A DNA stretch of 42,979 nt from Escherichia coli (GTDB taxonomy: Bacteria; Pseudomonadota; Gammaproteobacteria; Enterobacterales; Enterobacteriaceae): the NCBI RefSeq assembly GCF_003334815.1, contig NZ_QOWO01000032.1. The stretch is one strand, 5' to 3'. How positions within the stretch are numbered: position 1 is the stretch's first letter; each line of letters starts with the position of its first letter. The notes under the pieces were generated by a model, which made no database searches, was not told where the DNA came from, and worked only from the letters and a program-made list of their open reading frames with translations. The position numbers and the translations under genes are program-made. This document shows positions 13,186 through 22,830 of the stretch, piece by piece.

Positions 13186-15162
13186 TTATGGCATTACGCC
13201 ATCAGTCAGATAGTTGCCATGCTTAACCGCGTGACGCCGCCACATCAGGAGAATTGCAGTCGAGATTGCAGCCCCCACCAATGCCGCGCCAAACCAGCCA
13301 ATTGCCGCCATAACACCGCCCGCGCCATTATCATGAAGTAAAAAGAGCGAGAAAATGCCGGCACCGGGTGTCGAAAGGCCGATATTCATCGCACCGACAA
13401 TAGCGCCCGTTACCATAGAGCCCAGCACAAACGAACCAATAACCCGCAGCGGATCTTCAATCGCCATCGGGATCGCCCCTTCGGTAATACCTGCCAGCCC
13501 TAACAGCCAGGTGGATTTCCCGGTCTCAATTTCAAACTCTTTAAACAGGCGCGGTGCGAGCATCGTGGAAGCGGTTACGGTAAATGCCGAAACCATTTTG
13601 ACGGAGGCGAAAATGGCATACGGGCCGTAAACGCCGTTCGCCATTGCGCCCAGGCAGAATGCATAAGCGGCTTTATTCACTGGCCCTCCAAGGTCAAAGG
13701 AACACATAAAACCGAGAATGGCACCCAGCAACAGCGCGTTACTTCCTGACAGACCGTTCAGCCAGGCGGTAAGCGAGTTATTGATCCAGGCGACAGGTTC
13801 CCCCACCACAAACAGCATCAGACTGCCCGCTCCCAACGTACCGAGCACCGGGTAGAGATAAAAAGTCAGGAATCCATTGAATTTACTGCTAAGACGCAAG
13901 TGATTTTTCACCCAGCGCATCAAGTAACCGGCTATCAATCCGCCAACGACCGCGCCGAGAAACCCGGAGCCGATCATGTTGGCGGCAAGTCCAGCCGCAA
14001 AGCCTGGCGCTAACGCCGGTTTATCTGCCAGAGAATAGGCGGTATAGGCCGCGAGCACCGGTACCATCAAAATTCCGAGCAGCCCGCCGCCCAGCTTGCG
14101 GTACATCCACAGCCAGGAGTTTTCTTCATTAAACAGATCTTGTAGCCCGAAGATTTGCGACAGTAATACCGCGACCGCCAGCACCGTGCCCCCCGCGACA
14201 ATCAACGGTACGGCAAAAGAGATTCCGCTCAACAGTGCCTGTTTCAGCTCCGTTTTGACACTTTTCACCGGTTGCGTATCTTGCTGTACGGTACGCGTCT
14301 CATCGCTACGCTTGAGGGTAAGCGCTTGTTGGATCAACGCTTCTGCATGGCGAATCGGCTCGGCAACAGGCACTGAAAGCGCGGGAATGCCATTAAAACG
14401 CTCACTCTCCTTGATGGCGACTTCAGCCGCAAAAATACAGGCGGTTGCACTATTGAGTTGATCCGCCGTTAAACGCCCTTCAATGCCGTTAGCGCCTTGT
14501 TTTTCAACGTAAACATTTACGCCGAGTTTGCGTCCGGCTTTTTCCAGATATTCCGCAGCCATATAGGTGTGAGCAATACCCGCCGGACAGGCCGTTACGC
14601 AGACGATAGTTGGCGCGTTGGAAAAAGAGGCAGAAGGTTGCGTGCCTCCCTTGTCATCCAGCGCCGAGAGCAACTCATCAGGCGTCGTCGCCGACTGTAT
14701 ACGCGCCCGAATCTCATCATCCGCAAGGCGCGTGGTCAGCGCTGTCAGCAGTTGCATATGCGTAGTACCCGCTTCATTGGGGGGAATCGCCAGCAGCACC
14801 ACTAAATCAACTGCTTCCGGGCCATCAACGCCTTCCCACTGAAGCGGCTCGCTGAGTGTGGCGACCGCAAACGCCGCTTCTTTTACCGCAGCAGTTTTGC
14901 CATGCGGCACAGCCAACCCTTCACCTAAGGCGGTCGGGCCAAGGCTTTCACGGCGATACACTTCTTCCAGAAATTGCTCAGTACTGGAAATTTTCCCCAG
15001 AGCAGCAAGACGTTGAGTCAACGCGTGGATGGCCTCTTCACGGCTGGTAAAGCGCGCATTCAGACACAACGCATCGCGGTGGGTCAGAGTCGTCAGATTC
15101 ATCATGATCCTCACTTGATCGTTTTTATAGTCGCGCCAGTGTGCCCGATAAAACAATACCAT
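13186..15162 (-). CDS. mngA: PTS system 2-O-alpha-mannosyl-D-glycerate-specific EIIABC component
   Basis: 658-aa ORF with N-terminal EIIA-like and EIIB-like domains and a C-terminal polytopic EIIC domain. An alternative start at 15105 (MMNLTT...) has a better Shine-Dalgarno, so the start is uncertain. Confidence 0.88.
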
Positions 15163-15270
15163 TATGTGATCAATTTCACTTGATTGAAATTATTTGTATT
15201 GTATTTGTATTATTTACAGGATGAATTTATCGGGCATAATGGTTAAATTCGTATTAATGAGATACTAAAA
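15163..15270. promoter_or_regulatory. mngR / mngAB divergent control region with candidate MngR operators
   Basis: Inverted repeat aatttca-N6-tgaaatt (15172..15191) followed by direct repeats atttgtattgtatttgtatta; GntR/HutC-type operator-like. Confidence 0.5.
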
Positions 15271-15993
15271 ATGGGACACAAGCCCTTATACCGGCAGATT
15301 GCCGATCGCATTCGTGAACAAATTGCGCGTGGCGAGCTTAAACCTGGCGATGCGTTACCCACTGAATCAGCGCTACAAACAGAGTTTGGCGTCAGCCGGG
15401 TTACGGTGCGTCAGGCTTTGCGCCAGCTAGTCGAGCAGCAGATCCTCGAAAGCATTCAGGGCAGCGGGACTTACGTCAAAGAAGAGCGGGTCAATTACGA
15501 TATTTTTCAGTTAACCAGTTTTGATGAAAAACTGTCGGACCGTCACGTCGATACACACAGTGAAGTTCTGATATTCGAAGTGATTCCGGCTGACGATTTT
15601 CTTCAGCAACAGCTACAAATCACCCCGCAGGATCGTGTGTGGCATGTGAAGCGCGTGCGCTATCGCAAGCAAAAGCCAATGGCGCTGGAAGAAACCTGGA
15701 TGCCGCTTGCGTTGTTCCCGGATCTCACCTGGCAGGTCATGGAAAATTCGAAATATCACTTTATCGAAGAAGTGAAGAAAATGGTTATCGATCGTAGCGA
15801 ACAGGAAATCATTCCTCTGATGCCAACCGAAGAGATGAGCCGTCTGCTTAATATCAGCCAGACAAAGCCGATTCTTGAAAAAGTATCGCGTGGATATTTA
15901 GTTGATGGTCGGGTGTTTGAATATAGCCGCAACGCTTTTAATACCGATGACTATAAATTTACCCTGATAGCGCAGCGAAAATCATCGCGATAA
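15271..15993 (+). CDS. mngR: GntR/HutC-family transcriptional repressor MngR (FarR)
   Basis: 240 aa; N-terminal winged-HTH (…FGVSRVTVRQALRQL…) and C-terminal UTRA-like effector domain. Confidence 0.93.
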   Translation: MGHKPLYRQIADRIREQIARGELKPGDALPTESALQTEFGVSRVTVRQALRQLVEQQILESIQGSGTYVKEERVNYDIFQLTSFDEKLSDRHVDTHSEVLIFEVIPADDFLQQQLQITPQDRVWHVKRVRYRKQKPMALEETWMPLALFPDLTWQVMENSKYHFIEEVKKMVIDRSEQEIIPLMPTEEMSRLLNISQTKPILEKVSRGYLVDGRVFEYSRNAFNTDDYKFTLIAQRKSSR

Positions 15994-15995
15994 GC

Positions 15996-16021
15996 ACAAA
16001 AAAGGCCATCATACGATGGCC
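15996..16021 (-). terminator. Intrinsic terminator of the suc operon / SdhX
   Basis: Hairpin ggccatc-atac-gatggcc (16004..16021); on the minus strand followed by a run of about 8 U. Confidence 0.6.
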
Positions 16022-16096
16022 AACCATGTCGAAACCGACAGCCCTTCGCCATTCCTGTAGAGGGAAGCGGCGAGGGCTATTTCTTATTACAGATAT
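15996..16096 (-). ncRNA. sdhX: Probable 3'-UTR-derived sRNA SdhX (RybD)
   Basis: About 100 nt between the sucD stop and the terminator, GC-rich (…cccttcgccattcctgtagagggaagcggcgagggc…). Assigned by position and literature memory; exact ends not determined. Confidence 0.5.
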
Positions 16097-16966
16097 TTAT
16101 TTCAGAACAGTTTTCAGTGCTTCACCGATATCCGCCAGGCTGCGAACGGTTTTCACGCCTGCGGCTTCCAGAGCAGCGAATTTCTCATCCGCAGTCCCTT
16201 TCCCACCGGCAATGATGGCACCCGCGTGGCCCATACGTTTGCCTTTCGGCGCAGTCACACCAGCGATGTAACCCACAACTGGCTTGGTAACGTGCTCTTT
16301 GATGTACGCAGCTGCTTCTTCTTCAGCGCTACCGCCGATCTCACCGATCATCACGATCGCTTCGGTCTGCGGATCTTTTTCGAACATTTCGAGAATGTCG
16401 ATAAAGTTAGAGCCCGGGATCGGGTCACCGCCGATACCGACACAGGTCGACTGACCGAAACCGTAATCCGTGGTCTGTTTAACCGCTTCATAGGTCAGTG
16501 TACCGGAACGGGAAACGATACCCACTTTACCCGGTTTGTGAATGTGACCAGGCTGGATACCGATTTTGCATTCACCCGGAGTGATAACGCCTGGGCAGTT
16601 CGGGCCGATCATACGAACGCCTGCTTCATCCAGCTTCACTTTCACGGTCAGCATATCCAGCGTCGGGATGCCTTCAGTGATGGTGATAATCAGTTTGATG
16701 CCTGCGTCGATGGCTTCCAGAATGGAGTCTTTGCAGAACGGTGCTGGTACGTAGATAACAGAAGCGGTAGCGCCAGTGGCAGCAACGGCTTCACGCACGG
16801 TGTTGAACACCGGCAGGCCGAGGTGGGTGGTGCCGCCTTTACCTGGGGTTACGCCGCCAACCATTTTAGTGCCGTATGCAATGGCCTGTTCTGAGTGGAA
16901 AGTCCCCTGGCTACCGGTAAAGCCCTGGCAGATAACCTTGGTGTTTTTATCGATTAAAATGGACAT
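16097..16966 (-). CDS. sucD: Succinyl-CoA synthetase alpha subunit
   Basis: 289 aa starting [45 protein letters not shown]; CoA-binding and catalytic His-loop region. Confidence 0.97.
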
Positions 16967-18132
16967 TATTTCCCCTCCACTGCGGCAACAACCTGCTGAG
17001 CTGCATCCGTCAGACCTTTTGCTGCAATAATATTCAGGCCGCTGTCAGCCAGTTTCTTCGCGCCGAGTTCGGCGTTGTTACCTTCCAGACGTACCACGAC
17101 CGGTACGTTAACACCCACTTCTGCTACCGCGCCGATGATACCGTCAGCGATCAGGTCGCAACGAACGATACCGCCGAAGATGTTAACCAGAACGGCTTTC
17201 ACTTTGTCGTCAGAGAGGATGATTTTGAACGCTTCGGTTACACGTTCTTTGGTTGCGCCGCCGCCAACGTCAAGGAAGTTAGCCGGTTCGCCGCCGTGCA
17301 GTTTAACGATGTCCATCGTACCCATCGCCAGACCTGCGCCGTTAACCATACAACCGATGTTACCGTCCAGCGCAACGTAGTTCAGTTCCCACTGTGCAGC
17401 CTGTGCTTCACGCGGATCTTCCTGCGACTGGTCACGCATTTCGCGCAGATCAGGCTGGCGGAACAGTGCGTTGCCGTCAGCGCCCAGTTTGCCGTCGAGG
17501 CAAATCAGATCGCCCTGTTTGGTGATGACCAGCGGGTTGATTTCGATCAACGCCAGGTCGCGCTCCAGGAAAATGGTCGCCAGGCCCATGAAGATTTTGG
17601 TGAACTGCTGAACCAGTTTACCTTCCAGACCCAGTTTGAACGCCAGCTCGCGTCCCTGATACGGCATCGGGCCAGTCAGCGGATCAAGCGCAACTTTATG
17701 GATCAGGTGCGGAGTTTCTTCCGCCACTTTTTCGATTTCCACGCCGCCTTCGGTGGAGGCCATAAAGACCACACGACGGGAACTACGGTCAACAACGGCA
17801 CCGAGATACAGCTCTTTAGCGATATCGGTCGCTGCTTCAACCAGAATCTGGTTAACCGGTTGGCCATTGGCATCTGTTTGATACGTTACCAGACGCTTGC
17901 CCAGCCAGTTTTCTGCAAAAGCACGGATGTCTTCTTTGCTGTTTACAACTTTCACACCGCCCGCTTTACCGCGGCCACCAGCGTGAACCTGACATTTCAC
18001 TACCCACGGACCGGCACCGATTTTTGAAGCGGCTTCTTCTGCTTCGCGCGGAGTAGTACAGGCATAACCCACCGGTGCTGGTAAGCCATAGCGGGCAAAA
18101 AGTTGTTTTGCCTGATATTCATGTAAGTTCAT
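16966..18132 (-). CDS. sucC: Succinyl-CoA synthetase beta subunit (ATP-grasp)
   Basis: 388 aa starting [20 protein letters not shown]; stop overlaps the sucD start by 1 nt. Confidence 0.97.
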
Positions 18133-18214: not shown

Positions 18215-18485
18215 CCCGTAGGCCTGATAAGACACGTTAAACGTCACATCAGGCATCGCTTGTCGGATGCGGCGCTTGCGCCTTATCCGACCTACATTGG
18301 TGGTCCCCGTAGGCCTGATAAGACACGTTAACCGTCACATCAGGCATCGCTTGTCGGATGCGGCGCTAGCGCCTTATCCGACCTACATTGGTGGTCCCGT
18401 AGGCCTGATAAGACGCGTCAGCGTCGCATCAGGCTTCAATTGCCGGAGAAGGCGATAATGCCTTATCCGGTCTACAGTGCAGGTG
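18215..18485. repeat. Three tandem ~91-bp BIME/REP-containing units between sucB and sucC
   Basis: Units begin near 18215, 18306 and 18396; each contains gtaggcctgataagacgcgt…gcatcaggc and gccttatccg REP-like palindromes. Confidence 0.85.
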
Positions 18486-22710: not shown

Positions 22711-22830
22711 GCCTGATGCGCTGCGCTTATCAGGCCTACGGGTAATGACTTGTAGGCCGGATAAGGCGTTCACGCCGCATCCGGCACTGGTTGCCTGATG
22801 CGACGCTTGCGCGTCTTATCAGGCCTACGG
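22711..22830. repeat. REP/BIME cluster in the sdhB-sucA intergenic region
   Basis: Three REP-like palindromes (gcctgatgcg…cttatcaggcctacg; tgtaggccggataaggcg…; gcctgatgcgacgcttgcgcgtcttatcaggcctacgg) immediately after the sdhB stop. Confidence 0.8.

Follow-up and report, generated by a model that had tools for sequence, protein, structure and literature searches.

The sequence between sucD and mngR in an Escherichia coli contig is the known 3'-UTR small RNA SdhX, marked by a short conserved seed and a terminator

The final gene of the sdhCDAB-sucABCD operon, sucD, is followed by about 100 nt before the end of the convergent gene mngR, which raises the question of whether this sequence merely ends the operon or encodes a regulator, and, if so, how that regulator is produced. 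We addressed this question in a 42,979-nucleotide stretch of E. coli DNA (contig NZ_QOWO01000032.1), which we refer to in full as the window and whose orientation is the reverse of the K-12 map. A sequence-only reading of the window had proposed that a 3'-UTR small RNA, SdhX (RybD), lies directly after sucD. The RefSeq annotation of MG1655 contains an ncRNA, sdhX (b4764, "small regulatory RNA SdhX"), at 765050..765150, directly after sucD and stopping 2 nt short of the mngR end; across 171 aligned nt, which include all 101 nt of b4764, the window and MG1655 are 100% identical. Given this identity and the matching MG1655 coordinates, window positions 15996-16096 are exactly the annotated sdhX. 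The proposal was therefore right as to both position and sequence, and the seed, the terminator and the target complementarities described below are all present; its description needed correction as to strand, since the RNA belongs to the minus strand of the window. Read on that strand from 16096 to 15996, directly after the sucD stop, the 101 nt are AUAUCUGUAAUAAGAAAUAGCCCUCGCCGCUUCCCUCUACAGGAAUGGCGAAGGGCUGUCGGUUUCGACAUGGUUGGCCAUCGUAUGAUGGCCUUUUUUGU, and sdhX nt n corresponds to window position 16097 - n (Table 1). The stretch is the known sRNA SdhX (RybD): every sequence-level defining feature that can be tested was found, and the RNA was already known. In locus, 101-nt sequence, post-sucD position, seed, terminator and ackA, fdoG and katG sites it is the same as K-12 SdhX, with no sequence difference. 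SdhX was first seen in 2003 as an Hfq-bound RNA, and its characterisation in Salmonella and E. coli followed in 2018-2019 (PMC6393394, PMC9438474); its parent is the mRNA of the operon that sucD closes.

Table 1. Coordinates of sdhX, its neighbours and its pairing regions. SdhX nt are positions in the 101-nt RNA; target positions are relative to the target gene.
Feature	SdhX nt	Window position	Strand	Basis or remark
mngR, convergent neighbour, outside the sRNA system		15271..15993	plus	ORF list, MG1655 annotation
mngR stop codon		15991-15993	plus	
sdhX (RybD), full 101-nt form		15996..16096	minus	identical to RefSeq ncRNA b4764
U6 tail, expected Hfq-binding 3' end	94-99	15998..16003	minus	
Terminator stem-loop, 7 bp + 4-nt loop	76-93	16004..16021	minus	terminator scan, covariation
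Seed region, GUUUCGACAUGGUU	62-75	16022..16035	minus	matches published seed
Seed core, UUCGACAUGG	64-73	16024-16033	minus	pairs with ackA, fdoG
GG↓UUU	61-65	16032..16036	minus	sole RN↓WUU match in sdhX
Hairpin 1, Escherichia-specific	19-57	16040..16078	minus	MFE structure
Apical part of hairpin 1, complementary to katG SD	29-42	16055-16068	minus	14-bp pairing
5' leader, AU-rich	1-18	16079..16096	minus	17% G+C
sucD stop codon		16097-16099	minus	
sucD CDS		16097..16966	minus	ORF list; annotated sucD in MG1655 and other E. coli
Pairing with ackA -2..+8 (CCAUGUCGAG)	64-73			9 Watson-Crick + 1 G-U; 2/3000 shuffles (seed nt 58-75 only)
Pairing with fdoG -22..-13	62-71			10 Watson-Crick, end G62:C-13; 2/3000 shuffles (seed nt 58-75 only)
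Pairing with katG -20..-7	29-42			14 bp, 13 Watson-Crick; 2/2000 shuffles
Pairing with yfbV (E. coli) -1..+5	67-72			6 bp; chance level

The 101 nt were found in all 5426 complete E. coli genomes searched, with coverage of at least 80% in 5425 of them; identity reaches 99% or more in 4086 records. Among the E. coli RefSeq records listed, MG1655 excepted, no RNA is annotated under the stretch. A scan with Rfam 15, at gathering thresholds and at a permissive E<=10 (15900-16200), gave no SdhX match; the permissive matches at sdhX were chance-level terminator ones only (for example isrD, 17.3 bits against a threshold of 37). An SdhX family model thus appears to be missing from Rfam 15. Elsewhere in the window there are three Rfam naRNA4 (REP-type) matches, at 18221-18383 (minus) and 22755-22825 (plus), all within the sdh-suc operon, at sites upstream of sucC and farther up the operon; two of them score exactly at the gathering threshold. 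The other Rfam matches are a tRNA cluster with two RtT elements (5-592), a CpoB/ybgF thermometer (1519-1657; 142 bits) and an ES036 sRNA (40207-40249), all on the minus strand. A plus-strand ATG ORF of 81 aa (16026..16271), antisense to the 3' end of sucD, starts inside sdhX and is probably a chance ORF.

The sequence after sucD had been described as structured, GC-rich and ending in a hairpin with a U-run, and all but one of these properties are borne out. The 101 nt fold at -41.3 kcal/mol, as against -26.1 +/- 3.2 in 200 dinucleotide shuffles (z = -4.71), and none of the 200 shuffles folded as well. The minimum free energy fold has three parts, namely the long hairpin 1, a weak 4-bp hairpin at nt 58-69 and the terminator. 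The terminator stem, GGCCAUC/GAUGGCC, has 7 bp with five G-C pairs (16021..16004, minus) and is followed by UUUUUU (16003..15998); it is the sole terminator-like site that a consensus scan reported in 15000..17000. The fold score, the hairpin and the U6 tract together establish that a structured, terminator-ended sequence of about 100 nt does follow sucD. It is not GC-rich: G+C is 48.5% overall, compared with 51.3% for the window, and only hairpin 1 is GC-rich (64%). The sRNA varies slightly between strains of E. coli. In the allele of strain MSHS 133 (L003:2501-2599), GGG replaces AAU at nt 44-46; these positions belong to the 3' arm of hairpin 1 and adjoin the katG-pairing segment, and the change makes two A-U pairs G-U. 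In the terminator loop, nt 83 is G, A or U depending on the strain.

We then compared the region between species. A scan for SucD, with one genome per species, yielded 80 loci (44 Enterobacterales-like and 36 non-Enterobacterales), from which the post-sucD sequence was taken. The seed, a GGCC-stem terminator and a U-run follow sucD in 21 of the 44 other Enterobacterales and in 0 of the 36 non-Enterobacterales. The seed-positive species are E. albertii, two Citrobacter, Enterobacter, Kluyvera, Cedecea, Siccibacter, Mangrovibacter, Superficieibacter, three of four Serratia, Dickeya, two Rahnella, Hafnia, Yersinia nurmii and two MAGs. The seed was absent after sucD at the sampled loci of Pantoea, Erwinia, Photorhabdus, Xenorhabdus, Morganella, Tatumella, Rosenbergiella, Budvicia and Arsenophonus. 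Where SucD identity is at least 94%, 14 of 15 Enterobacteriaceae-like loci carry the seed with at most two mismatches. The sucD 3' UTR ranges from 44 to 187 nt in length and its 5' parts cannot be aligned. An anchored alignment of 22 species showed that UCGACAU and the ends of the stem are invariant or nearly so, and that the 12 nt upstream are unconserved. An alignment across enterobacteria had been suggested as a check on the sRNA, and it identifies a conserved seed above the neutral level: in the seed-positive species, mean identity to E. coli is ~93% over the seed (the 12 nt above the stem) and ~52% at four-fold sites of sucD, which are saturated, the 93% being inflated by ascertainment because the 21 species were selected as seed carriers. 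Over the 12 nt upstream of the seed, identity is ~31%. Across the 22 species, 100% of cells in the terminator stem are paired, and in 4 of the 7 pairs both sides have changed in a compensatory manner; the covariation score of the stem was reached by 0 of 500 shuffles, and slid controls fell to 22-61% paired. At shorter range, E. coli and E. albertii differ at 4 of 99 positions in sdhX, as against 24% at four-fold sites, and two of the four differences (C28U and G47A in E. albertii) form a compensatory pair in hairpin 1. Judged by such comparisons, the entire sdhX is under constraint within Escherichia.

Two of the sampled loci depart from their relatives. Enterobacter sp. BIGb0383 (L019) has kept the GGCC-stem terminator and its seed has diverged to GCGACUUAACU, and in Serratia grimesii (L024), in contrast to three other Serratia species, the terminator is a different one and the seed is missing. 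These are possible lineage-specific losses of SdhX function.

The seed defined by Miyakoshi et al., UUCGACAUGGU, lies just upstream of the terminator (PMC6393394), and it is present in sdhX at nt 64-74, directly 5' of the terminator. In the predicted fold, seed nt 66-69 sit in the weak 4-bp hairpin with nt 58-61, and this hairpin is not conserved elsewhere. We took target regions from MG1655 and counted ungapped complementary runs against shuffled targets (Table 1). RNAduplex with full-length SdhX had given unrealistically long, loop-filled duplexes that separated poorly from shuffles, and was replaced by these counts. The ackA pairing spans the start codon and the second codon (UCG); the match is ordinary when the whole 101 nt are used and G-U pairs are allowed (248 of 2000 shuffles), and stands out only when the search is restricted to the seed. 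The computed pairings agree with published genetics, in which compensatory mutants were G62C/C-13G for fdoG and C34G for katG in E. coli: the fdoG run ends on G62, the katG run covers the C34 region, and the yfbV match is at chance level, regulation of yfbV having been lost in E. coli (PMC6393394). In Salmonella, the seed mutant was G41C, again with compensatory target mutations (PMC6393394). Hfq-CLASH in E. coli recovered hybrids of SdhX with ackA and katG (PMC7213987).

These data bear on whether the stretch could be no more than an operon 3' UTR and terminator, which ends transcription and shields sucD mRNA from 3' exonucleases and has no role in trans. The strong terminator is compatible with that, and when the entire 3' UTR is deleted SucD falls and growth on acetate suffers, so that a cis role of the terminator is real (PMC6393394). 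However, a purely cis element accounts neither for the conservation of the 12 nt above the stem relative to four-fold sites and to the next 12 nt, nor for exact complementarity to the initiation regions of ackA, fdoG and katG, and the G41C, G62C and C34G mutations with their compensatory target mutations demonstrate regulation in trans, which refutes it as a complete explanation (PMC6393394). We consider it very improbable that the 3' UTR acts in cis alone, and return to SdhX as a trans-acting sRNA whose terminator also serves its own mRNA.

With regard to how the RNA is made, RNase E is said, after Chao et al. in 2017, to prefer RN↓WUU. The single match in sdhX is GG↓UUU, and a cut there would leave a fragment of 37-39 nt made up of seed and terminator. 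This position agrees with the ~38-nt short form of SdhX (PMC6393394, PMC9438474) and with the published SdhX2 processing site, where E. coli has G62 (PMC6393394). The published 5' ends of SdhX are processed ends. An alternative origin, on the model of MicL, would be an independent sRNA gene transcribed from a promoter of its own within the 3' end of sucD. SdhX and SucD levels are not always in step (PMC6393394), and there is one minus-strand promoter-like match in sucD, at 16542..16515. However, this match, ~420 nt upstream of the sucD stop, scores 9 of 12, and promoter-like matches around sdhX and sucD are as frequent as expected by chance (3 found, 2.3 expected); moreover, no transcription start site was found for SdhX, which is lost in an rne-ts strain (PMC6393394). 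Since the sequence upstream of the seed is unconserved between genera, there is also no conserved promoter. We rejected the candidate promoter as a chance-level match, and an independent gene of this kind is barely credible. Release from the operon mRNA by RNase E is the origin we retain.

The mechanism that we favour would run as follows. Transcription of the operon would end at the hairpin and U6, and RNase E would free the 3' UTR as the ~101-nt form; a further RNase E cut at GG↓UUU (nt 62/63) would give the ~38-nt form, consisting of seed and terminator. With Hfq on the terminator and U-tail, the single-stranded seed core would pair with the start and second codons of ackA and block translation of acetate kinase, which would couple acetate and acetyl-phosphate metabolism to transcription of the TCA-cycle operon. 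In E. coli the seed would be lengthened by G62, permitting repression of fdoG, and the ribosome-binding site of katG would pair with the apical part of hairpin 1, a hairpin specific to Escherichia. We are very nearly certain of this mechanism as a whole, that is, of a 3'-UTR sRNA released by RNase E, bound by Hfq and pairing with ackA, fdoG and katG. What we contribute to it is the identity to the annotated gene, the structure, the conservation of seed and terminator above neutral, and the target complementarities; the stable RNAs, the dependence on RNase E and Hfq, and the repression of targets come from the literature. Stable SdhX, Hfq binding and target repression have been reported in vivo (PMC6393394, PMC7213987; reviewed in PMC9438474), a role of terminator U-tails in Hfq binding has been described (PMC6393394), and Northern blots of SdhX and the effect of a seed mutant on an ackA translational fusion are published, positive, for K-12 and Salmonella.

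SdhX of S. Typhimurium (SdhX1, 87 nt; SdhX2, 38 nt; PMC6393394) shares with that of E. coli the parental operon, the seed core, the terminator, RNase E processing, Hfq dependence and the ackA target. It differs in having an unrelated 5' part that lacks the katG-pairing segment, and fdoG is not targeted because position 62 is U rather than G. Salmonella SdhX also targets fumB and yfbV, both of which have been lost as targets in E. coli because of changes around their start codons (PMC6393394). More widely, CpxQ, SroC, NarS, GlnZ and MalH resemble SdhX in that an mRNA terminator doubles as an Hfq-binding 3' end (PMC9438474, PMC6393394), the RNA is released by RNase E, and a short seed above the terminator represses other mRNAs; their parental genes and targets are different. 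SdhX is unusual among 3'-UTR sRNAs in being conserved only over a short seed and the terminator, with a 5' part that varies freely.

The junction downstream of sdhX is variable. Most Enterobacterales have same-strand cydA directly downstream of sucD (26 of the sampled loci), and only Kluyvera has an adjacent convergent mngR. In E. coli, gene content just 3' of the sdhX U-run (window ~15994-15997) differs by lineage: mngR-mngAB is found in the K-12 type, a convergent RtcB-family gene and then hutU in a second locus (L002), and a co-directional gene for a TPR-repeat protein in the MSHS 133 locus (L003). The homology of other E. coli lineages to the window ends directly after the U-run; some 1543 of the 5426 genomes lack coverage of at least 80% of 15900-16200, yet 5425 keep most of sdhX. 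In E. coli FDAARGOS_944 (L004:2573-3330), an IS1 is inserted after sdhX nt 73, between seed and terminator, a natural disruption of both the sRNA and the operon terminator.

The sequence-only reading had placed the hairpin 3 nt after the mngR stop, as a terminator shared back-to-back by the two genes, with mngR read-through antisense to the sRNA. The distance fits only the annotated 3' end of sdhX (15996), which is 3 nt from position 15993, where the mngR stop ends; counted from there, the U-run begins at 5 nt and the stem at 11 nt. Nor is the hairpin a canonical bidirectional terminator: what comes after it on the plus strand is AACCAUGUCG, without a U-run, and the scan of 15000..17000 reported no plus-strand terminator. 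The claim about read-through stands in part. Because of the close convergence, RNA from any read-through of mngR would be antisense to SdhX, and transcription from mngR into the antisense of sdhX is plausible; what weakens the claim is that the hairpin has no mngR-strand U-run and that the neighbour is unconserved.

The convergence could itself be functional if, in K-12-type strains, antisense RNA from mngR read-through paired with SdhX and titrated or destabilised it. In favour of this, the mngR stop is close to the sdhX 3' end, and inefficient termination of mngR would be expected from a hairpin with no plus-strand U-run. Against this, the usual neighbour in Enterobacterales is same-strand cydA, and in other lineages of E. 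coli the place of mngR is taken by an RtcB-family or TPR gene. Because the neighbour is unconserved in both E. coli and the Enterobacterales, its adjacency to sdhX is best seen as an accident of local gene content rather than part of the design of the sRNA, and we think a functional convergence improbable. A search for mngR together with sucD found no papers in the library searched, and mngR is not mentioned in the SdhX paper PMC6393394. A functional role for antisense transcription from the lineage-specific mngR is unlikely. On a speculative note to which we give little credence, antisense RNA from K-12-type read-through, with perfect complementarity to SdhX, might lower free SdhX, so that acetate metabolism would be coupled to the mannosylglycerate locus in a single lineage, and, more generally, the sdhX 3' junction might be a recombination hot spot whose changing neighbours alter SdhX output.

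The sequence-only reading recognised a 3'-UTR sRNA without recourse to databases, and our analysis adds no new biology to what is known of it. By-products are that sdhX is unannotated in the listed E. coli RefSeq records other than MG1655, and that its downstream junction varies between lineages. SdhX is a textbook case of a regulator carried at the 3' end of an operon mRNA, and through it acetate kinase and acetyl-phosphate levels are linked to expression of the TCA-cycle operon.
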